Shown piece after piece: positions 5,711 to 21,355 of a stretch of DNA of 21,355 bases. This stretch comes from a virus (lineage: Duplodnaviria > Heunggongvirae > Uroviricota > Caudoviricetes). How positions within the stretch are numbered: position 1 is the first letter of the stretch; each line of letters starts with the position of its first letter. Under the pieces are notes generated by a model. The model was not told where the DNA came from. It was given only the letters and a program-made list of their open reading frames with translations, and did no database searches. Made by a program: the position numbers and the translations under genes. The DNA lies in IMG/VR virus record IMGVR_UViG_2541047698_000017, positions 1 to 21,355 of that record, one strand, 5' to 3'.

Positions 5711-6565
5711 TCAGCAGTTCGTCATCAGGGCGTCACCGCCACCGCCGGTGGCCTTGCTGCGGCGCTGCTGGGTCAGACTTTCGGTGTGGTCGAGACTGTT
5801 TTTCAGGCGGGTGAATGCCTGGCTGGTTTCATCCGCCCTGTCAGTCACCTCCTGCTTAAGTGCGGAAAAGGCGGTTTCCATCTCCGCGAGGCGCTGCTCA
5901 GTGGCGCTCAGTTTTTCCTGCACATGTTCAGCAACAGCGGTCACCGCTTCATGCACGTCATTCAGACGGGCATCATCGCTGGCCTGTTTGCGGCCAAAAA
6001 TGGACTTCACCTTTTCGGTCAGGGCGGTGAACACGGTTTCAGGCAGGTCTTCAAATTCCAGCTCAACAGGCGTTGCCACTGAAATCAGGTTTTCAGGGCT
6101 TAATTTGAAGCGGTTCAGAGGGTTGTGTTTTGCCGTGCGGCAGAATTCCAGGTATTCCGTGCCGAGGCTTGCCGGGTCATCGGTGACGGCCAGCCCCACC
6201 AGATAACATTTGCCGGTGTTGGCAAAGTTCGGCTGAATTTCCATTGAGGTGTAGACCTTCTGCGCGGCCTTGTTCATCGCGATAAGGTCATTGGTCGGGG
6301 TGATTTTCGCAAACAGCGCCCATTTGCCTTTCAGCGCCGAATCATCGTCAATCTTTTCGGCCTTCAGTTCGGCCACATCGCCATAACGTTTAAAAATGCC
6401 GTCAGGCAGGATGCCGCGCAGATGTTCCAGGTTAATGCGGCAACCATAGACACGCGGGTCAAAGGTTTCGGCCATTTCCTGAATATCCTGCGCACTGATG
6501 ACACGCCCGTCACAGGTGTCACCCTCAACGCCGATACGAAAGAATTTTGAGACTTTTTTTGCCAT
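5711..6565 (-). CDS. O: P2 gpO-like capsid scaffolding protein/protease (284 aa)
   Basis: Internal ATG at 6565 (MAKKVSKFFRIGVEGDTCDGR...) gives 284 aa as in P2 O; the track's 306-aa form is a 5' extension. Confidence 0.9.
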   Translation of the reverse strand: MAKKVSKFFRIGVEGDTCDGRVISAQDIQEMAETFDPRVYGCRINLEHLRGILPDGIFKRYGDVAELKAEKIDDDSALKGKWALFAKITPTNDLIAMNKAAQKVYTSMEIQPNFANTGKCYLVGLAVTDDPASLGTEYLEFCRTAKHNPLNRFKLSPENLISVATPVELEFEDLPETVFTALTEKVKSIFGRKQASDDARLNDVHEAVTAVAEHVQEKLSATEQRLAEMETAFSALKQEVTDRADETSQAFTRLKNSLDHTESLTQQRRSKATGGGGDALMTNC

Positions 6566-6738
6566 TGTCAGGAGTCCTGAATAGTGATTAGAGGAGTCAC
6601 ATGTCGGCATCAGTTTCCCGACGATGCGCATCCTCCGCCATCAGTCCCGGATGGCTTATCACTGACACAACAGCACCTTAGCGAATCGCAGGGCGCGACT
6701 CAGTAGCCTTGCCGTGTATTCATCACGGCGAGGTATTC
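6566..6738. promoter_or_regulatory. Divergent O/P intergenic region, expected site of P2-type late promoters
   Basis: By P2 synteny the divergent late promoters for O and P lie here. I did not find a canonical TGT-N12-ACA activator site by eye, so this is positional only. Confidence 0.35.
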
Positions 6739-8511
6739 ATGACCATCACCACAGACACCACTCTTTTACACGACCCGCGTCGTCAGGCGGCGCTGCTGTA
6801 CTGGCAGGGGTTTTCCGTGCCGCAGATTGCCGCCATGTTGCAGATGAAACGCCCGACGGTGCAGAGCTGGAAACAGCGCGACGGCTGGGACAGCGTTGCC
6901 CCCATCAGCCGTGTCGAAATGAGTCTGGAAGCGCGACTGACCCAGCTCATCATCAAACCGCAGAAAACCGGTGGTGACTTCAAGGAAATTGACCTGCTCG
7001 GACGCCAGATTGAACGACTGGCACGGATAAACCGCTACAGTCAGACCGGCAACGAGGCAGACCTTAATCCGAACGTCGCTAACCGCAACAAAGGCGGGCG
7101 TCGCAAACCGAAAAAGAATTTTTTCAGTGACGAGGCCATCGAAAAGCTGGAGCAGATTTTCTTTGAGCAGTCTTTCGACTATCAGTTGCACTGGTATCGC
7201 GCCGGGCTTGAGCACCGCATCCGCGATATCCTGAAATCCCGCCAGATTGGCGCAACGTTTTATTTTTCCCGCGAGGCGCTGCTGCGCGCCCTGAAAACCG
7301 GCCATAACCAGATTTTTCTGTCGGCCAGTAAAACGCAGGCGTATGTATTCCGTGAATACATCATCGCCTTTGCCCGTCTGGTTGACGTTGACCTGACCGG
7401 TGACCCGATTGTCCTGGGCAATAACGGCGCAAAACTGATTTTTCTCGGCACAAACTCCAACACCGCGCAGAGCCATAACGGCGACCTGTACGTCGATGAG
7501 ATTTTCTGGATCCCGAATTTTCAGGTACTGCGTAAGGTGGCATCAGGTATGGCCTCACAGAGTCACCTGCGCTCGACCTATTTCTCCACCCCGTCCACGC
7601 TGGCGCACGACGCCTACCCGTTCTGGTCAGGTGAACTGTTCAACCGGGGACGCGCCAGCGCCGCCGAACGTGTGGAAATCGACGTCAGTCATAACGCCCT
7701 TGCCGGTGGGCTTCTCTGTGCGGACGGCCAGTGGCGGCAGATTGTCACCATTGAGGATGCCCTGAAAGGCGGCTGCACGCTGTTCGACATTGAGCAGCTC
7801 AAACGCGAAAACAGCGCCGACGATTTTAAAAACCTGTTCATGTGTGAATTTGTTGACGACAAGGCATCGGTGTTCCCGTTCGAGGAGCTGCAACGCTGCA
7901 TGGTCGACACGCTGGAAGAATGGGAAGACTATGCGCCGTTTGCCGCCAATCCGTTCGGCTCCCGCCCGGTATGGATTGGTTACGACCCGTCACACCGTGG
8001 CGACAGCGCCGGATGCGTGGTACTGGCACCGCCGGTGGTGGCCGGTGGCAAATTCAGAATACTTGAGCGTCACCAGTGGAAAGGCATGGACTTTGCCACC
8101 CAAGCTGAATCCATCCGCAAACTCACCGAAAAATACAACGTCGAATACATCGGTATTGATGCCACCGGCCTCGGTGTCGGCGTGTTCCAGCTCGTGCGCT
8201 CGTTCTATCCCGCCGCGCGTGATATCCGCTACACGCCGGAAATGAAAACCGCAATGGTGCTCAAGGCAAAAGACGTTATCCGCCGTGGCTGTCTGGAATA
8301 TGACGTCAGCGCCACCGACATCACCAGCTCGTTTATGGCTATCCGCAAGACCATGACCAGCAGCGGACGCAGCGCCACCTATGAAGCCAGCCGCAGCGAG
8401 GAAGCCAGCCACGCCGACCTCGCCTGGGCGACCATGCACGCCCTGTTAAATGAGCCACTCACCGCCGGTATCAGCACCCCGCTGACATCCACCATTCTGG
8501 AGTTTTACTGA
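6739..8511 (+). CDS. P: P2 gpP-like terminase large (ATPase) subunit (590 aa)
   Basis: ATG at 6739 (MTITTDTTLLHDPRRQAALLYWQGFSVPQIAAM...) with GAGG about 6 nt upstream gives 590 aa; the track start at 6709 is a TTG extension. Its stop overlaps the Q start (TGATG). Confidence 0.92.
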   Translation: MTITTDTTLLHDPRRQAALLYWQGFSVPQIAAMLQMKRPTVQSWKQRDGWDSVAPISRVEMSLEARLTQLIIKPQKTGGDFKEIDLLGRQIERLARINRYSQTGNEADLNPNVANRNKGGRRKPKKNFFSDEAIEKLEQIFFEQSFDYQLHWYRAGLEHRIRDILKSRQIGATFYFSREALLRALKTGHNQIFLSASKTQAYVFREYIIAFARLVDVDLTGDPIVLGNNGAKLIFLGTNSNTAQSHNGDLYVDEIFWIPNFQVLRKVASGMASQSHLRSTYFSTPSTLAHDAYPFWSGELFNRGRASAAERVEIDVSHNALAGGLLCADGQWRQIVTIEDALKGGCTLFDIEQLKRENSADDFKNLFMCEFVDDKASVFPFEELQRCMVDTLEEWEDYAPFAANPFGSRPVWIGYDPSHRGDSAGCVVLAPPVVAGGKFRILERHQWKGMDFATQAESIRKLTEKYNVEYIGIDATGLGVGVFQLVRSFYPAARDIRYTPEMKTAMVLKAKDVIRRGCLEYDVSATDITSSFMAIRKTMTSSGRSATYEASRSEEASHADLAWATMHALLNEPLTAGISTPLTSTILEFY

Positions 8512-9545
8512 TGAGCAAGAAAAAAGGGAAAACACCGCAACCTGCGGCAAAAAAAATGACTGCCAGCGCCCCGAAAATGGAGGCATTCACCTTTGGCGAG
8601 CCGGTGCCGGTACTCGACCGCCGTGACATTCTGGATTACGTCGAATGCATCAGTAACGGCAGATGGTATGAGCCGCCGGTCAGCTTTACCGGGCTGGCAA
8701 AAAGTCTGCGTGCTGCCGTGCATCACAGCTCACCGATTTACGTCAAACGCAATATTCTGGCCTCGACATTTATCCCGCATCCGTGGCTTTCCCAGCAGGA
8801 TTTCAGCCGCTTTGTGCTGGATTTTCTGGTGTTCGGCAATGCGTTTCTGGAAAAGCGTTACAGCACCACCGGTAAGGTCATCAGACTGGAAACCTCACCG
8901 GCAAAATATACCCGCCGTGGGGTGGAAGAGGATGTTTACTGGTGGGTGCCGTCCTTCAACGAACCGACAGCCTTCGCGCCCGGCTCCGTATTTCACCTGC
9001 TGGAGCCGGATATCAATCAGGAGCTGTACGGCCTGCCGGAATATCTCAGCGCCCTTAACTCTGCCTGGCTGAATGAGTCGGCCACGCTGTTCCGCCGCAA
9101 GTATTACGAAAACGGCGCACATGCCGGATACATCATGTACGTCACCGACGCCGTGCAGGATCGCAACGATATCGAAATGCTCCGCGAAAACATGGTGAAG
9201 TCGAAAGGCCGCAACAACTTTAAAAATCTGTTTCTCTACGCCCCGCAGGGAAAAGCCGACGGCATTAAAATTATCCCGCTCAGTGAAGTGGCGACGAAAG
9301 ACGATTTTTTTAATATCAAAAAAGCCAGCGCCGCAGACCTGCTGGACGCGCACCGCATCCCCTTTCAGTTGATGGGCGGCAAGCCGGAGAACGTCGGGTC
9401 GCTGGGTGATATTGAGAAAGTGGCAAAGGTCTTTGTCCGCAATGAGCTTATCCCGTTACAGGACAGGATCCGCGAGATAAACGGCTGGCTCGGTCAGGAG
9501 GTCATCCGATTTAAAAACTACTCACTGGACACTGACAACGGCTGA
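8511..9545 (+). CDS. Q: P2 gpQ-like portal protein (344 aa)
   Basis: 344 aa (MSKKKGKTPQPAAKKMTASAPKMEAFTFGEPVPVLDRRD...); lies downstream of P and next to cos, as in P2. Confidence 0.92.
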   Translation: MSKKKGKTPQPAAKKMTASAPKMEAFTFGEPVPVLDRRDILDYVECISNGRWYEPPVSFTGLAKSLRAAVHHSSPIYVKRNILASTFIPHPWLSQQDFSRFVLDFLVFGNAFLEKRYSTTGKVIRLETSPAKYTRRGVEEDVYWWVPSFNEPTAFAPGSVFHLLEPDINQELYGLPEYLSALNSAWLNESATLFRRKYYENGAHAGYIMYVTDAVQDRNDIEMLRENMVKSKGRNNFKNLFLYAPQGKADGIKIIPLSEVATKDDFFNIKKASAADLLDAHRIPFQLMGGKPENVGSLGDIEKVAKVFVRNELIPLQDRIREINGWLGQEVIRFKNYSLDTDNG

Positions 9546-9550
9546 ACATC

Positions 9551-9572
9551 GCCGCCTGCGGGCGGCTTTTTT
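9551..9572 (+). terminator. Rho-independent terminator after Q
   Basis: GC hairpin gccgcc-tgcg-ggcggc followed directly by tttttt, 6 nt after the Q stop. Confidence 0.7.
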
Positions 9573-9714: not shown

Positions 9715-9733
9715 GTGCTTTCCCCGCCTCGCC
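9715..9733. other. cos site: 19-nt cohesive-end sequence of P2/P4/186-type phages
   Basis: gtgctttccccgcctcgcc is the exact reverse complement of the P2 cohesive end GGCGAGGCGGGGAAAGCAC as I recall it; it sits next to Q as on the P2 map. Confidence 0.7.
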
Positions 9734-9779
9734 CGCCCGCTTCATGGGGCGGTTTTAATGCAGTTGCATCAGGAAATCA

Positions 9780-9961
9780 GAGCTCTACCAACACTAGCAC
9801 GCCCCCACATGCTTTGAAATAAAAGCGAATGCAAACTCATGCACCAGTTAGATGCATTAGCACAAAGCTGAAAATCATAAAATAAGCGGCATAATCCCCC
9901 TCATGCTACCAAGAAACTCTCAAGATGTTGTGCTAAACATCGATGATCTGTACCTTGTTTT
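9780..9961 (+). promoter_or_regulatory. AT-rich upstream region of the accessory island; putative promoter
   Basis: Composition shifts abruptly to AT-rich after about 9780; weak -35/-10-like hexamers (ttgaaa at 9814, cataat at 9890) but no convincing sigma70 match. Confidence 0.3.
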
Positions 9962-11428
9962 ATGGTAAACATATCTATAAGTAATCACACAGATGGAACT
10001 AAAATAACTATGGCAAACGATATCATCGAAGCTTTTCCTGCAAAACGTTTCTTTGTAGAAATGTTAACCAGGGATATCGAACTCCAAGATGCTATTCTTG
10101 ACTTATTAGACAACTGTCTTGATGGCGCTCTTCGTTCCATTTCATCATCGAATGAAGAAATAAACGAAGAAAATAAATACCACGGTTTTTACTCAAAAAT
10201 AAATTTTAATGAAGATGGTTTTACAATTGAAGATAATTGTGGCGGAATTTCGGGAAGCTTAGCAACAAGCTATGCTTTCCGAATGGGAAGACCAAATGAA
10301 AGAGACATAGATAATATCCCAACCATTGGTGTTTATGGGATAGGTATGAAGCGAGCTATTTTTAAGTTGGGCACTTCATCGCAAGTATTAAGTAAAACAA
10401 AAGACGAGGAATTTAAAGTTACAATTTCTCCAGAATGGTTATCCAATGATAAAAACTGGAAACTAGATCTCGAACGTGGTAATGTCGATTTAAAAACAAC
10501 GGGCGTAAAAATTATAGTTAACGATCTCAGAGACGATGTAAAAAACCATTTCAAAGTTGATCGTGATTTTCAACAAAAATTAATCAATTCTGTTTCAAAC
10601 CATTATAGCCTAATTCTTAATAAAGGTTTCAAGGTCTATATTAATGATATAGAAGTCAAGCCAAATCTGACATCATTAATTATCGATACCGAAGCTCTTG
10701 TGTCAGCGAAAAAAGGTGGTATCACGCCTTATTTTTACAGAGGTGAAACTAATGGAGTTTCAATAAAGATCGCAGTTGGATTCTATAGAGATTTTGTGAC
10801 AGAAGATGAGGAAAATTCATTCCTTACTGGACGTAACACTTCCGAGAAAGCCGGATGGACTATTATCTGCAATGATCGTGTTGTTGTTCATGCGGACAAG
10901 ACACGTCTTACCGGATGGGGTGAAGCAGGAGTTCCACAATATCACACACAATTTGTTGGAATTGCAGGCGTAGCTATTTTTACATCTAATGAAGCTGAAA
11001 AATTACCTATTACTACTACCAAGAGAGGCATTGATGGTAATTCTGATATCTATTTGGCTACTAAAGATTTCATGCGTGAAGGCTTGAAAATATTTACAGA
11101 TTTTACTAACAGATGGAAAAGTAACTCTCCAGAACGCCAGCAAATGTTTAGTTCCACATCTAAAACAATTCCTCTTACAAACGACAAACTAGATAGCATA
11201 GTACCTGAAGATAAATGGTCTCGGGTGCATAGATCCATTGGTGGGAATAGTTTCAAACCAACATTGCCAATACCTAAAGAAACAGACCCTTTAAAGCAAA
11301 TAAAATTTAGTAGAAGATTGAGTGAGATAAAAACTGTTGCCACTTTCATTTTCGATGATGATTCTGTTCCTCCGACAGAAATTGGTAATTATTGCTTTGA
11401 AGATTTTTTAGAGAGGGCAAAAAAATGA
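9962..11428 (+). CDS. GHKL-superfamily (MORC/MutL-like, Bergerat-fold) ATPase, 488 aa; start uncertain (alternative ATG at 10010)
   Basis: Three GHKL motifs in order: motif I ELQDAILDLLDNCLDGAL (compare MutL ELVENSLDA), G1 box FTIEDNCGGIS (DxGxG), G2 box IGVYGIGMKRAIFKLG (closest to the MORC-type G2 box). About 350 C-terminal residues have no motif I can assign. Neither candidate start has a strong Shine-Dalgarno sequence. Confidence 0.75.
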   Translation: MVNISISNHTDGTKITMANDIIEAFPAKRFFVEMLTRDIELQDAILDLLDNCLDGALRSISSSNEEINEENKYHGFYSKINFNEDGFTIEDNCGGISGSLATSYAFRMGRPNERDIDNIPTIGVYGIGMKRAIFKLGTSSQVLSKTKDEEFKVTISPEWLSNDKNWKLDLERGNVDLKTTGVKIIVNDLRDDVKNHFKVDRDFQQKLINSVSNHYSLILNKGFKVYINDIEVKPNLTSLIIDTEALVSAKKGGITPYFYRGETNGVSIKIAVGFYRDFVTEDEENSFLTGRNTSEKAGWTIICNDRVVVHADKTRLTGWGEAGVPQYHTQFVGIAGVAIFTSNEAEKLPITTTKRGIDGNSDIYLATKDFMREGLKIFTDFTNRWKSNSPERQQMFSSTSKTIPLTNDKLDSIVPEDKWSRVHRSIGGNSFKPTLPIPKETDPLKQIKFSRRLSEIKTVATFIFDDDSVPPTEIGNYCFEDFLERAKK

Positions 11429-12417
11429 GTACTGGGGGAAGTATTCCTTATCATCTTCGACAACACAAAGCTGTCGAAAGAAATCTATTCATTGAGTTGC
11501 TCAGAAAACTCAACAACTATGTAAACATATCCGATTATGTTTATATCGGGTTTGGTGGCCCTTTTCTAGAAGACTTCAAACAACTGCATAATGCTTTAAA
11601 AATCAATAACATGATCTCTCTAGAGGTAGATGCTAACGTTCATAAACGACAAAAATTTAACAAACCTATATCATGTATTGATTTAGGAGAAGAACCTTTA
11701 AGTAGCAGTGAATTTATTACTCAAAGCGACTTCGCTGCACCTTCTCTAATTTGGCTTGACTATGCCATACCAAGCCAAATATATGAGCAAATGAATGACA
11801 TTGCTCAATTGGTAAGTAAGTTAAAGCCAAAAGATATATTTAAAATAACTTTAAATGCAACTCCTGAAACTTTAGGAAGAGATTTTCAAGAAAGAGACCC
11901 TAGGCGTTTTCGATTAAAAAAAATACAATCTTTACTTACTCAAGATTATTGCCCAGTGAATCTAACTGTTGATGATGTCACTTTTAAAAGGTACCCACAC
12001 CTTTTAATAAAAGCAGCTCAACGTGCCATAAGTATTGGATTAACAGGTAGACCAGATATAATGATCCATCCTTTATGTAATTTTATTTACAAAGATGGTC
12101 AGCAAATGCTTACCTTTACTGCCATTGTTCTCGAAAACAGTGATATGCAATTAGATAGCTTCCTTCAAAATTCTCGAATTAATTTTTGGCCCTTTTATTC
12201 TGGAGACTGGGGCACCGTCAAAAACATTAGTGTTCCCACGATGTCTTTACGTGAGAGAATCTTTATTGAGGAACGACTTCCTACAAAAGACCATGAAGAA
12301 ATTACCAACGACCTCGGCTTTTACATTGGAGATGATGAAGCCGAGGCTAATAGTAACCTTAAAAACTTTATTGAGTATTACAAAGTAATTCCGTGGTATT
12401 CGAAAGTTCTTCTTTAG
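11425..12417 (+). CDS. Protein of unknown function (330 aa), translationally coupled to the GHKL ATPase; candidate effector or specificity partner
   Basis: Its ATG overlaps the upstream stop (ATGA at 11425-11428), with GAGAGGG about 8 nt upstream. No motif recognised with confidence; only a weak Rossmann-like glycine-rich segment (YVYIGFGGPFLEDF ... ISLEVD). Confidence 0.7.
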   Translation: MSTGGSIPYHLRQHKAVERNLFIELLRKLNNYVNISDYVYIGFGGPFLEDFKQLHNALKINNMISLEVDANVHKRQKFNKPISCIDLGEEPLSSSEFITQSDFAAPSLIWLDYAIPSQIYEQMNDIAQLVSKLKPKDIFKITLNATPETLGRDFQERDPRRFRLKKIQSLLTQDYCPVNLTVDDVTFKRYPHLLIKAAQRAISIGLTGRPDIMIHPLCNFIYKDGQQMLTFTAIVLENSDMQLDSFLQNSRINFWPFYSGDWGTVKNISVPTMSLRERIFIEERLPTKDHEEITNDLGFYIGDDEAEANSNLKNFIEYYKVIPWYSKVLL

Positions 12418-13519
12418 AAAACTGACATAATTTATATAACGGTAATAGCATAGCTTCAGCTACTAATGGGCTAACGCTATTACCGATTTGCCTGAAACTA
12501 TGCCACTTAGTAGGGTGAAACCTAAACCAATCAGGAAAACCTTGTAATCGAGCAGCCTCACGTGGAGTAATAACTCTAGCCTGCGTTGGATGGATCGGCC
12601 TAACTGCTTGATAACTGCCCTTATCGCTGCCAGTTCCAGCCCTTAGCGTCGGACAGAAACCATTTGGATTTAACCTCTGAGATCGTGAAATTTTATCAGT
12701 TTCGCCAAAAGAGAGTTTTTTATATCTATTAATAACCTCATCTGTATGTATTGTTCCCAAGAAACCGGAGACCAACCCTTTTTTTAATTTTTCTAAAGAT
12801 TCCGGATCACCAACATTATTCGGAACATTACTCCAAAGTCTATCAAAAAAATATCCTTGCCTATCCATCTTAACTTCACGCCAGCCTTGTTCCTCTTGCT
12901 GCCATTCTTTTCTTATAACACGAGGAATACCGTATAAAGCATCTTTAACTAAGGTTTGCTCAATATCTTGCACAGGAAAGAAATCAGATTCTTTTAAACA
13001 ATTAGCTAATTCCTTTTTGAATCCGATAAAAAAAATCCTAGTTCTAGTTGTAGGAGCTCCATAATTAGACGCATTCACTTTTATTGGGCTCAATATTACA
13101 TATCGGTCTTTTACTAATGAGAATGCTTTTTCTCTAACTGCATCATATTTTTCATTCATTATCCCAGGAACATTCTCTGCCAAGAAACAAACAGGTGATA
13201 ACTCGCTCACCAACCTAAAAAAATGAATATACAATTCATTTCTGACGTCATTAGCCATCCCTTTACCAATTGTACTAAATCCCTGACAAGGTGGTCCACC
13301 GATGACACAATCAATATTACTAACATTACAAGCTGTTAGAATATCATGAGCAGAAAGTTTGCTAACATCTTTATGTAAATGTGTTGAATTTGGGAAATTA
13401 AGAGCATGGGAAAATATTGCATGCTTATCCAACTCAACGGCACCAACCAAGTTAAAGCCTGCCCGTGATGCTCCCAAGCTTAAACCACCTACCCCTGAGT
13501 ATAAATCAACCACATTCAT
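12368..13519 (-). CDS. DNA (cytosine-5)-methyltransferase, Dcm-like (383 aa)
   Basis: Canonical m5C-methyltransferase motifs: I DLYSGVGGLSLG, IV GGPPCQGFS (catalytic Cys), VI ENVPG, VIII TTRTRIF, X QIGNSVSP. Gene is AT-rich; its 3' end overlaps the convergent partner gene by 50 nt. Confidence 0.88.
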   Translation of the reverse strand: MNVVDLYSGVGGLSLGASRAGFNLVGAVELDKHAIFSHALNFPNSTHLHKDVSKLSAHDILTACNVSNIDCVIGGPPCQGFSTIGKGMANDVRNELYIHFFRLVSELSPVCFLAENVPGIMNEKYDAVREKAFSLVKDRYVILSPIKVNASNYGAPTTRTRIFFIGFKKELANCLKESDFFPVQDIEQTLVKDALYGIPRVIRKEWQQEEQGWREVKMDRQGYFFDRLWSNVPNNVGDPESLEKLKKGLVSGFLGTIHTDEVINRYKKLSFGETDKISRSQRLNPNGFCPTLRAGTGSDKGSYQAVRPIHPTQARVITPREAARLQGFPDWFRFHPTKWHSFRQIGNSVSPLVAEAMLLPLYKLCQFSKEELSNTTELLCNTQ

Positions 13520-13569
13520 GTTCAGTTAACCATATATGTATATTTAGACAACAATATTTAATTCTACCA

Positions 13570-18434: not shown

Positions 18435-19448
18435 ATGGCAATCAAAAAACTCGATGATGGTCGATATGAAGTGGACATCCGCCCTACTGGACGTAACGGA
18501 AAACGCATCCGTAGGAAGTTTGATAAGAAAAGCGAAGCTGTCGCTTTCGAAAAATACACGTTGTACAACCACCACAATAAAGAATGGCTATCAAAACCAA
18601 CAGACAAACGACGTCTGTCGGAACTGACACAGATCTGGTGGGATTTAAAGGGTAAACACGAAGAGCATGGGAAATCTAATCTTGGAAAAATTGAAATCTT
18701 CACAAAAATAACGAATGACCCATGCGCATTTCAAATCACGAAATCCCTTATCAGCCAGTACTGCGCCACCCGAAGAAGTCAGGGTATTAAACCTTCGAGT
18801 ATCAATCGTGATTTAACATGTATTAGCGGCATGTTTACAGCCCTGATTGAAGCGGAGTTATTCTTTGGTGAGCACCCTATCAGAGGGACAAAGAGGCTTA
18901 AGGAGGAAAAACCAGAAACAGGCTATCTCACACAGGAAGAAATTGCCTTACTGCTTGCAGCACTTGACGGCGACAATAAAAAGATTGCGATTCTTTGCCT
19001 GAGTACAGGAGCACGTTGGGGAGAAGCAGCTCGTTTGAAAGCAGAAAATATCATCCATAACCGCGTCACGTTTGTTAAAACGAAAACAAACAAACCACGC
19101 ACCGTCCCGATCTCAGAGGCTGTTGCCAAAATGATCGCGGATAACAAACGAGGTTTTTTATTCCCTGATGCTGATTACCCTCGCTTCAGACGAACAATGA
19201 AAGCAATAAAACCGGATTTGCCAACGGGGCAAGCCACACATGCACTAAGGCACAGCTTTGCCACTCATTTCATGATTAATGGAGGAAGTATTATCACGCT
19301 ACAACGGATACTAGGTCACACGCGGATTGAGCAAACTATGGTTTACGCTCATTTTGCGCCAGAGTACCTTCAGGACGCCATTTCTCTTAATCCGCTAAGA
19401 GGTGGTACTGAAGCCGAGAGTGTCCACACAGTGTCCACAGTAGAGTAA
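18435..19448 (+). CDS. int: P2-type tyrosine integrase (337 aa)
   Basis: 337 aa; tyrosine-recombinase catalytic motifs (HALRHSFATH; LGHTRIEQTMVYAH); GGAGGG Shine-Dalgarno; 3' end next to the att core. Confidence 0.92.
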   Translation: MAIKKLDDGRYEVDIRPTGRNGKRIRRKFDKKSEAVAFEKYTLYNHHNKEWLSKPTDKRRLSELTQIWWDLKGKHEEHGKSNLGKIEIFTKITNDPCAFQITKSLISQYCATRRSQGIKPSSINRDLTCISGMFTALIEAELFFGEHPIRGTKRLKEEKPETGYLTQEEIALLLAALDGDNKKIAILCLSTGARWGEAARLKAENIIHNRVTFVKTKTNKPRTVPISEAVAKMIADNKRGFLFPDADYPRFRRTMKAIKPDLPTGQATHALRHSFATHFMINGGSIITLQRILGHTRIEQTMVYAHFAPEYLQDAISLNPLRGGTEAESVHTVSTVE

Positions 19449-19527
19449 CGTTTAAGGGCTTTCAGTGGTAATTTATGCCGCTCAAACCCGCATTGTACCG
19501 TTGAAAGCCCCTACTGGTGACACCCTA

Positions 19528-19554
19528 AATCTCCCTTACACGGGCTTATTTTTT
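19528..19554. other. 27-bp phage attachment core (P2 locI-type), int-proximal prophage/host junction
   Basis: aatctcccttacacgggcttatttttt is the reverse complement of the P2 att core AAAAAATAAGCCCGTGTAAGGGAGATT as I recall it, which coincides with the 3' terminator of the host sRNA gene cyaR. It lies 80 nt after the int stop. Confidence 0.6.
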
Positions 19555-19724
19555 GTGCATAAACCATAGAGACGGATTGATCCCAGGTGACCGTCTTCCA
19601 TTGACCACATCGATAGAATCTCCCTTCATAGCACGATGCCTTTCACGTAACGGCATCGTGCTCGCACAGGTTCCGGCTAAGCACAACCAGAACGCGCATG
19701 TTTGACGCTTACCAAAAAATATTC

Positions 19725-20042
19725 TCACTCTCCACATTTGAATGTCAGACGAGCGACGCCATGTAATCCTGCACCTTCTGTCTTCAGGTCAACTATCTGC
19801 ATTTTTTTGCCCTGAGTAACACAGAAATGAGCTGCATCATTTTTTACTATATTTTCTGCACCAGATATTCTGCCCCTGGCTAAAGAAGCTTCGGCTTCGG
19901 TGTAGTATTGGTTATCGAGTTTACGCTGAATATTACTTTTATATGCAAGACCAAATTTACCGATACTTGTCTCATCATTATGTACAGCACACCCAGACAT
20001 AAGAAAAACACTAATTAATGATATAGCAGCTATCTTTTTCAT
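19725..20042 (-). CDS. yegR: Host small exported, lipoprotein-like protein (YegR-like, 105 aa)
   Basis: ATG at 20042 gives MKKIAAISLISVFLMSGC..., a signal peptide with Cys; its position divergent from yegS matches the E. coli yegR-yegS neighbourhood as I recall it. Confidence 0.6.
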   Translation of the reverse strand: MKKIAAISLISVFLMSGCAVHNDETSIGKFGLAYKSNIQRKLDNQYYTEAEASLARGRISGAENIVKNDAAHFCVTQGKKMQIVDLKTEGAGLHGVARLTFKCGE

Positions 20043-20455
20043 CTTACCTTCCCCCATTAAATACCAACGACACGCTCTGGTGTTAAAATATAATAATGGC
20101 ATGATTATTATAATTGAATAGGATTATAATAAATGTTCTGTACAACATTTCCTACATAAGTAGGAATTACAAACATGAAGCCCTGCCCAGGTATCCCCAT
20201 GAGGGCTTTAATATATTTAGAATAAGATAGTGAAGATGCCACTGTTTAGTTGAATATTAGGTATATGCTCTTTTTTGAAATTTACCGGTGGCTACCGTTA
20301 ACATTCACTGTCCCCATTGCAAGCTCCTGGTGGTAACCACTGAATCCTCCATACTTGAACTGATTTTTATCCTCCGACTTTCATCCTGTTCTGACTCCAC
20401 CTTTTCTTTTCTGCTCTACACTATCTACAGACCAATCATAAAGGCACATACGATC

Positions 20456-21355
20456 ATGGCAGAATTTCCCGCCAGCTTACTGATTCTTAATGGCAAAAGT
20501 ACTGACAATTTACCATTGCGCGAAGCAATTATGCTGTTGCGTGAGGAAGGAATGACGATCCATGTGCGGGTCACCTGGGAGAAAGGCGATGCCGCACGAT
20601 ATGTAGAGGAGGCCCGGAAGTTGGGCGTCGCAACGGTGATTGCCGGTGGTGGCGATGGCACCATTAATGAAGTTTCTACGGCGTTGATTCAGTGTGAGGG
20701 GGATGACATACCCGCGCTAGGAATTTTGCCATTAGGAACCGCCAATGATTTTGCCACCAGTGTAAGGATTCCTGAGGCACTGGATAAGGCGCTGAAACTG
20801 GCAATTGCCGGTGACGCCATTGCGATAGATATGGCGCAGGTCAACAAACAAACCTGTTTTATTAATATGGCGACAGGCGGATTTGGGACGCGTATTACCA
20901 CAGAAACGCCGGAAAAATTAAAAGCCGCGCTGGGTGGCGTCTCTTACATCATTCATGGCTTAATGCGCATGGATACTCTGCAACCGGACCGTTGTGAGAT
21001 CCGCGGTGAAAACTTTCACTGGCAAGGTGACGCCCTGGTCATTGGTATTGGTAACGGGCGTCAGGCCGGTGGCGGTCAGCAATTGTGCCCGAACGCGTTA
21101 ATTAACGATGGCTTGCTGCAACTGCGCATTTTTACCGGCGATGAAATTCTTCCGGCTCTCGTATCAACATTAAAATCTGACGAAGATAACCCGAATATTA
21201 TCGAAGGCGCTTCGTCGTGGTTTGATATACAAGCCCCACACGAAATCACTTTTAATCTTGATGGCGAACCGTTGAGCGGACAAAACTTTCATATTGAAAT
21301 ACTTCCGGCGGCGTTGCGTTGTCGATTACCACCAGATTGCCCATTGTTGCGTTAA
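20456..21355 (+). CDS. yegS: Host lipid kinase YegS (299 aa), complete
   Basis: [28 protein letters not shown]... with the diacylglycerol-kinase-family GGDGT motif ([12 protein letters not shown]); 299 aa from ATG 20456; the track start at 20288 is an upstream extension. Confidence 0.85.

Follow-up and report, generated by a model that had tools for sequence, protein, structure and literature searches.

The window analysed here is a stretch of 21,355 nucleotides (nt) from a virus of the Caudoviricetes (IMG/VR record IMGVR_UViG_2541047698_000017, positions 1 to 21,355), and our subject is a cassette of three genes within it (Table 1). The cassette encodes an ATPase of the prokaryotic MORC family, a 330-amino-acid (aa) protein of Pfam family PF20553 (hereafter, the target) and, on the opposite strand, a Dcm-type DNA (cytosine-5) methyltransferase. 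A sequence-only reading of the same DNA had described an ATGA stop-start overlap and a good ribosome binding site at the junction between the ATPase and target genes, together with a 50-nt overlap between the 3′ ends of the target gene and the convergent methylase gene; all three are present exactly as described, and a similar convergent overlap occurs in enterobacterial and P2-like relatives.

Table 1. Features of the cassette and its surroundings, numbered from the first nucleotide of the window
Feature	Position	Strand	Basis or remark
Low-GC (guanine plus cytosine) cargo island	9780..13550		32-40% GC against 52-58% GC in the P2-like backbone; composition profile
Candidate sigma-70-like promoter, CTGAAA-16-CATAAT	9868..9895	+	Upstream of the ATPase gene; consensus scan, 9/12 matches; weak
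Prokaryotic MORC-family GHKL+S5 ATPase, 472 aa	10010..11428	+	Mechanical open reading frame from 9962 (488 aa); RefSeq start 10010
Shine-Dalgarno sequence GAGAGGG of the target open reading frame	11411..11417	+	Inside the 3′ end of the ATPase gene; 7 nt before the ATG
ATGA stop/start overlap, MORC ATPase to target	11425..11428	+	ATG 11425-11427 over TGA 11426-11428; translational coupling
Target gene, 330 aa, PF20553 (Methyltransf_35)	11425..12417	+	Open reading frame coordinates, Pfam
Convergent 3′-end overlap of target and dcm, 50 nt	12368..12417		Open reading frame coordinates
DNA (cytosine-5) methyltransferase, Dcm type, 383 aa	12368..13519	-	Pfam DNA_methylase, E = 8.6e-58; TIGR00675 dcm; PADLOC MTase_II, E = 7.9e-95

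The cassette lies in a P2-like prophage region that is found, 100% identical, in 3 of 5426 complete E. coli genomes, and the exact cassette is present in only these three. The terminase gene P and the portal gene Q flank the island on one side and the replication gene A flanks it on the other (assigned by Pfam Phage_portal and Phage_GPA, and by the RefSeq annotation of the identical prophage). This position, between Q and A, makes the cassette part of the cargo of the P2 tin/old hotspot. Moreover, 20 P2-like contigs in IMG/VR carry the cassette at the same Q/A site; a megablast search of the phage collection returned no match. The tin/old hotspot has been shown to hold anti-phage systems (Rousset et al. 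2022, PMC9122126), and the accessions of exactly this trio appear in the hotspot-content table of that study (supplementary file 6), where the target is labelled "hypothetical". Some of these contigs combine a near-identical backbone with divergent cassette alleles. In one of them (L092), the gpA protein is 97% identical to that of the window and the portal and terminase proteins are 100% identical, while identity is ~63% for the MORC and PF20553 proteins and ~81% for Dcm. The alleles of the hotspot cassette are exchanged, and the MORC-PF20553 pair diverges faster than the methylase.

An obligate pair of MORC ATPase and PF20553 protein

A homologue of the MORC ATPase is encoded directly upstream of the target homologue, on the same strand, in 79 of 80 genome loci, the exception being a 2-kb contig; a MORC homologue is likewise directly upstream in 37 of 38 IMG/VR viral loci. 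At least 38 of the 72 junctions that were scored have a 4-nt ATGA or GTGA overlap and most of the others have a gap of 0-5 nt, in relatives from many phyla, a recurrence of the ATPase-target junction that is far beyond chance. Further, pairwise identities among the MORC proteins correlate with those among the PF20553 proteins (r = 0.89). The MORC ATPase and the PF20553 protein are an obligate, co-evolving and translationally coupled pair, which supports the co-expression with the ATPase that the sequence-only reading had proposed, and also a functional coupling of the two.

The ATPase is a member of the MORC family by its GHKL ATP-binding boxes, its S5 domain and its MORC motif, and it is MORC-like in the fold search. 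In particular, the GhXhhpXXRhl motif that was used to define the family (Iyer et al. 2008, PMC2292703) reads GWTIICNDRVV in this protein and is present in 73 of 76 relatives, versus 0.6% of shuffled sequences. The ATP-binding boxes are invariant among the relatives. The GHKL N-box, DLLDNCLDG (window 10100-10126; residues 31-39 of the 472-aa form), has an Asp in place of the usual Glu four residues before the Asn, and this residue at the general-base position may make ATP hydrolysis slow or regulated. The C-terminal ~120 residues are helical and have no match of any kind, and no nuclease domain is detectable in the ATPase or in the target (Pfam, PADLOC, fold search). In NCBIfam, the ATPase has only a sub-threshold match to MzaB (14.5 bits against a cut-off of 850), and in PHROGs the ATPase and the target both fall into families of unknown function. 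The start codon at 10010 is favoured because the alignments of homologues begin at residues 17-24 of the 488-aa form; neither of the two starts (9962 and 10010) has a strong Shine-Dalgarno sequence, and a consensus scan finds promoter-like sites in the region to be no more numerous than expected from shuffled sequence.

A second, longer paralogue with the GHKL and MORC motifs (546-610 aa, ~25% identical to the ATPase of the pair) is encoded beside Dcm in some relatives (L008, at 10243-11961, and L009, L010, L013, L015, L018, L031 and L032). These loci may correspond to the neighbourhoods with both MORC and paraMORC1 that were described by Iyer et al. (2008).

A class I methyltransferase fold in the target

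According to the sequence-only reading, the target lacked any recognisable catalytic motif and could not be confidently assigned to a family. Both statements give way here, as the target matches PF20553 ("putative O-methyltransferase") from end to end (E = 1.5e-84, 284.5 bits against a cut-off of 27; residues 3-328 on positions 2-307 of the 309-position profile), and a fold search with its predicted structure finds a class I S-adenosylmethionine (SAM)-methyltransferase fold. A DISARM-linked relative also matches PF20553, and the identical protein in RefSeq (WP_021517197.1) carries the name O-methyltransferase. The confident AlphaFold2 model is a seven-stranded, Rossmann-like fold with a hairpin of strands 6 and 7, and it is flanked by a PYHLRxxKAxER motif at the N terminus and a helical extension at the C terminus. 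The glycine-rich, Rossmann-like segment that had been the only earlier hint (YVYIGFGGPF ... LEVD) fits into this model, where YVYIGFGGPF forms strand 1 and the G-loop, and LEVD forms the acidic end of strand 2. The matched family, PF20553, is itself uncharacterised and no confident match to a well-characterised housekeeping family arose; the role of effector or specificity subunit proposed earlier is compatible with the evidence in either form.

The family is large and uniform in its architecture. A word-indexed search collects homologues in 355 clusters and an exhaustive search collects 1981 representatives at 50% identity; the best 150 of these 1981 are all stand-alone proteins of ~320-345 aa without fusions. 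Across an alignment of 76 sequences from more than 10 phyla, the positions expected to bind SAM are kept: strand 1 is followed by the G42-x-G44-G45 loop, strand 2 ends in E67 and strand 4 ends in D112. In particular, within the motif I loop (I-G42-F-G44-G45-P), G44 is present in at least 95% of the sequences and G45 in 85-95%; E67 is present in 85-95%, and at least one sequence that lacks it has an Asp instead. Other polar residues are also conserved in the family (Y9, R12, K15, R19, R75, Q76, N79, T142, N144, Y222, D224 and E277), and the overall pattern looks like the active site of an enzyme.

The conserved positions do not follow the signatures of the DNA amino- or C5-methyltransferases. 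Strand 4 ends in W-L-D112-Y-A-x-P throughout the family, which does not fit the motif IV of the DNA amino-methyltransferases of the N6-adenine (N6A) and N4-cytosine types, (D/N/S)PP(Y/F/W). Nor is the target a C5-cytosine methyltransferase, as it has no match to PF00145 and its sole P-x-C (P216-L-C218) is unconserved. The closest solved folds are those of RNA methyltransferases (RlmI-like TTHA1280, Trm1, RsmD-like, RlmO and TrmN), with TM-scores of 0.43 or less and ~10% identity, and a family-profile sequence search of all PDB chains gave only a chance match (E = 1.1). No NCBIfam model matches the target, and PF20553 or Methyltransf_35 is not mentioned in any paper of the literature searched. 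Two other assignments were tried and rejected. A likeness to RlmJ, suggested by the N-terminal Y/H/K motif, received an hhalign probability of 0.5%; a PD-(D/E)XK reading of D112...K140 fails, as the residue two positions ahead of K140 is not acidic, D137 is unconserved and the fold is that of a methyltransferase.

If the Pfam and RefSeq names were taken literally, then PF20553 would be an ordinary small-molecule O-methyltransferase that is unrelated to its neighbours, and some catechol and natural-product O-methyltransferases are indeed among the structural matches. However, nothing specifically backs the "O-" of the name, with O-methyltransferases no nearer to the target than N- or C-methyltransferases in both fold searches. 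Moreover, an invariant MORC pairing, neighbouring methylase or DISARM genes and a place in prophage defence hotspots are unlike metabolism, and no biosynthetic genes lie nearby. We consider this reading to be highly improbable and the least likely of all.

The target open reading frame contains an A8 homopolymer at 11915-11922. In E. coli GF43 (NZ_CP172127.1), an otherwise identical target gene is annotated as split into two coding sequences by a 1-nt deletion, with the ATPase and Dcm genes intact; the frameshift could be an error of long-read assembly, or it could be a natural frameshift or a phase-variable knockout.

Genomic contexts of the pair

A census of 121 loci separates the contexts in which the pair occurs. 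In particular, 52 loci have Dcm only, 29 have Dcm and Vsr with or without other genes (the Vsr assignment being backed by Pfam), 21 are class 1 DISARM loci and 11 have none of these. About three quarters of the loci outside DISARM include a Dcm homologue, and to this extent the earlier proposal that the methylase is tied to the other two genes holds. The overlap on which that proposal rested does not define the association; the Dcm gene may lie upstream or downstream of the pair and on either strand, which makes the 50-nt overlap a feature of this lineage.

Within the DISARM loci, the gene order is drmD-drmMI-[MORC-PF20553]-drmA-drmB-drmC, the genes lying a few nucleotides apart, and the RefSeq annotation of a Microvirga plasmid independently has the same order. 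The association with SAM-dependent methylase systems of two different chemistries (Dcm and DrmMI) is also what might be expected if PF20553 were a non-catalytic sensor that binds SAM or a base, for example as a guard against SAM depletion or against phage anti-restriction inhibition of the methylase, with MORC as the effector. The non-canonical motif IV of the target is consistent with such a sensor, as are the lack of fusions and of other effector domains found in the family. However, the predicted active site is surrounded by many polar residues that are under strict conservation from phylum to phylum, a pattern more typical of an enzyme; we regard the sensor as doubtful.

The same trio is also found in the accessory region of the Pseudomonas Pf inovirus PfAC20, where it has been read as an incomplete restriction-modification (R-M) system (PMC11878078). 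In another type of prophage, the trio lies beside a STAND NTPase gene and an HNH gene. In three Nostocales loci (L027, L029 and L030, around 6500-9000), the pair stands alone between the housekeeping genes ndhF and ndhD, and the 17-kb locus contains no methylase or nuclease. Further, a conserved ~230-aa protein without a Pfam match, which contains CxxC and H-x-P-P/S motifs, is encoded near the pair in seven loci (e.g. L071, 9040-9726, and L015, 5606-6262), including DISARM operons; it may be a nuclease of the HNH-like or zinc-finger type that has escaped recognition.

The ability of the pair to occur alone, and the RNA methyltransferases among its closest solved folds, would suit an abortive-infection effector, in which MORC activates PF20553 on infection to methylate rRNA, tRNA or protein and to shut down translation, and in which the linkage to methylases reflects co-localisation in defence islands or a trigger function. 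We find this improbable. The structural likeness is generic at the TM-scores and identities given above, MORC relatives act on DNA, and both the embedding in DISARM operons, a few nucleotides from the adjacent genes, and the convergent overlap with dcm point beyond co-localisation.

Outside of the cassette, strong GC-rich hairpins followed by T-runs form terminator-like sites at 9549-9566 and 9733-9752, located 3′ of the portal gene, where the sequence is still GC-rich ahead of the low-GC cargo; the late operon presumably ends among them, and we take them to be near where cos lies in P2. The window also extends beyond the end of the prophage, with an integrase gene and then the host genes yegR and yegS (18435-19448; 19725-21355). 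The position of yegR and yegS after the integrase places the attachment site around 19450-19700.

Interpretation and comparison with known systems

With moderate confidence, we favour the reading that the target is a divergent, probably active protein of the class I SAM-methyltransferase fold and the obligate partner of MORC, and that the pair is a mobile module that joins DNA-methylation-based immunity. In the mechanism that we propose, a dimer of the MORC ATPase would form a DNA clamp driven by ATP, and the methyltransferase-fold subunit, in a physical complex with it and using SAM, would engage or methylate a nucleic-acid base of its substrate. The partner DNA methylase would mark self DNA, and the module would act, in a methylation-dependent manner, on invading DNA that lacks the mark, with no nuclease of its own. 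We favour a role for the pair on the restriction or sensing side of such a methylation-gated system, and it is a good candidate for a new anti-phage module. Since the trio has no nuclease, a classical restriction mechanism is unavailable to it, and the system would be closer to BREX than to classical R-M.

Several observations weigh against this immunity module. The co-evolution of Dcm with the pair is only weak (r = 0.36), and in ~6-8 loci, mainly in Nostocales, the pair is alone with no methylase nearby; these solo loci argue against a strict dependence on a linked methylase, and imply that the pair can be a two-gene module. Moreover, the pair is found with both 5-methylcytosine (Dcm) and N6A-type (DrmMI) methylases, and with two methylase chemistries it is unlikely to read one specific mark. 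At the level of the proteins, motif IV of the target is non-canonical (D-Y-A-x-P and not (D/N)PP(Y/F)), the target is mildly acidic with an isoelectric point of about 6, and the Asp at the general-base position of the ATPase is kept in 69 of 76 relatives. Further, no nuclease is recognisable in the three genes of the window (Pfam, fold search), the pair is absent from the PADLOC models, and the trio was found neither among the systems tested in PMC9122126 nor in the text of that paper.

The same lack of a nuclease in the trio, together with a methyltransferase fold that looks intact, also suits a different role, in which PF20553 is a second protective DNA-modification enzyme. Helped by MORC, it would add an extra mark beside that of Dcm or DrmMI, and the pair would be a modification or anti-restriction module that shields prophage or host DNA. 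Temperate phages often carry orphan methylases. A DNA methylase gene is close by, and in DISARM the pair directly follows drmMI; the published reading of the Pf copy as an incomplete R-M system (PMC11878078) points the same way. We consider this protective role to be somewhat unlikely. A bolder version of the immunity module is, in our judgement, rather unlikely. In this version, the MORC ATPase, guided by a base-engaging PF20553, would clamp or compact unmethylated invading DNA and silence it without a nuclease. The module would be a prokaryotic antecedent of the DNA-methylation-linked silencing by MORC in eukaryotes, and class 1 DISARM would have taken it up again as an accessory arm.

An origin of the MORC ATPases in bacterial R-M systems was predicted in 2008 (PMC2292703), and no experimentally characterised bacterial MORC system was found in the literature searched. 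The locus offers a compact version, of three genes and 3.8 kb, from an E. coli prophage, in which the invariant partner has a methyltransferase fold and not a nuclease fold. If the pair is anti-phage, then it is a system that current defence-finder models miss, it explains two unannotated genes in many class 1 DISARM operons, and it offers a tractable model for how a MORC ATPase is coupled to DNA methylation. If it is only a second modification module, then it is still a new type of ATPase-dependent methyltransferase on temperate phages.

Iyer, Abhiman and Aravind (2008, PMC2292703) predicted that MORC and paraMORC ATPases, with Dcm and Vsr, are components of R-M systems. The locus resembles their description in the linkage of a GHKL+S5 ATPase, with its MORC motif, to a cytosine methylase and frequently also to Vsr, and their helicase-less minority class fits it; the second, longer MORC-like paralogue of some relatives also has its parallel there, in paraMORC1. 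In contrast, a nuclease partner was expected in that study and a methyltransferase-fold partner is not described in its main text, whereas here PF20553 is invariant and the trio has no recognisable nuclease. For the same reason, the cassette does not belong with the type II R-M systems: there is no endonuclease gene by the methylase in the window, and Vsr or HNH genes accompany only some relatives.

Class 1 DISARM is likewise a DNA-methylation-linked defence, and it contains the pair within its operon, between drmMI and drmA, in 21 of the 121 loci. However, the window has no DrmA, DrmB, DrmC, DrmD or DrmMI, and the description of the characterised Serratia DISARM includes no such pair. The MORC-PF20553 pair is an add-on module and not a defined component of DISARM.

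The RNA methyltransferases of the Trm1 and RsmD/RlmI types differ from the target in their motif IV and share no sequence-level match with it in the PDB, besides the low identity and TM-scores already given; compared with these enzymes, only PF20553 has the N-terminal PYHLR motif and the C-terminal extension. BREX combines the PglX methylase with ATPase partners and has no evident nuclease. The trio resembles it by analogy, as a methylation-linked defence that would need a methyltransferase-fold protein and an ATPase with no nuclease in evidence, but their components are not homologous, the pair has no match to the BREX models of PADLOC, and the marking methylase of the trio (Dcm) is a separate third gene.

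Overall, PADLOC v2 matches 0 families to the target and the ATPase at E-values up to 1, and the same is true of their DISARM-embedded copies. The literature searched on GHKL or MORC proteins with DISARM, anti-phage defence or cytosine methyltransferases does not describe the MORC-PF20553 pair, which is also absent from the papers on YprA/ARMADA and on class 1 DISARM. Already known are the theme of MORC with Dcm and Vsr, as a prediction from 2008 (PMC2292703), and the presence of PF20553 in Pfam; new with respect to PADLOC and the literature searched are the obligate MORC-PF20553 pair, its insertion into class 1 DISARM and its recurrence in the cargo of P2 and Pf prophages.

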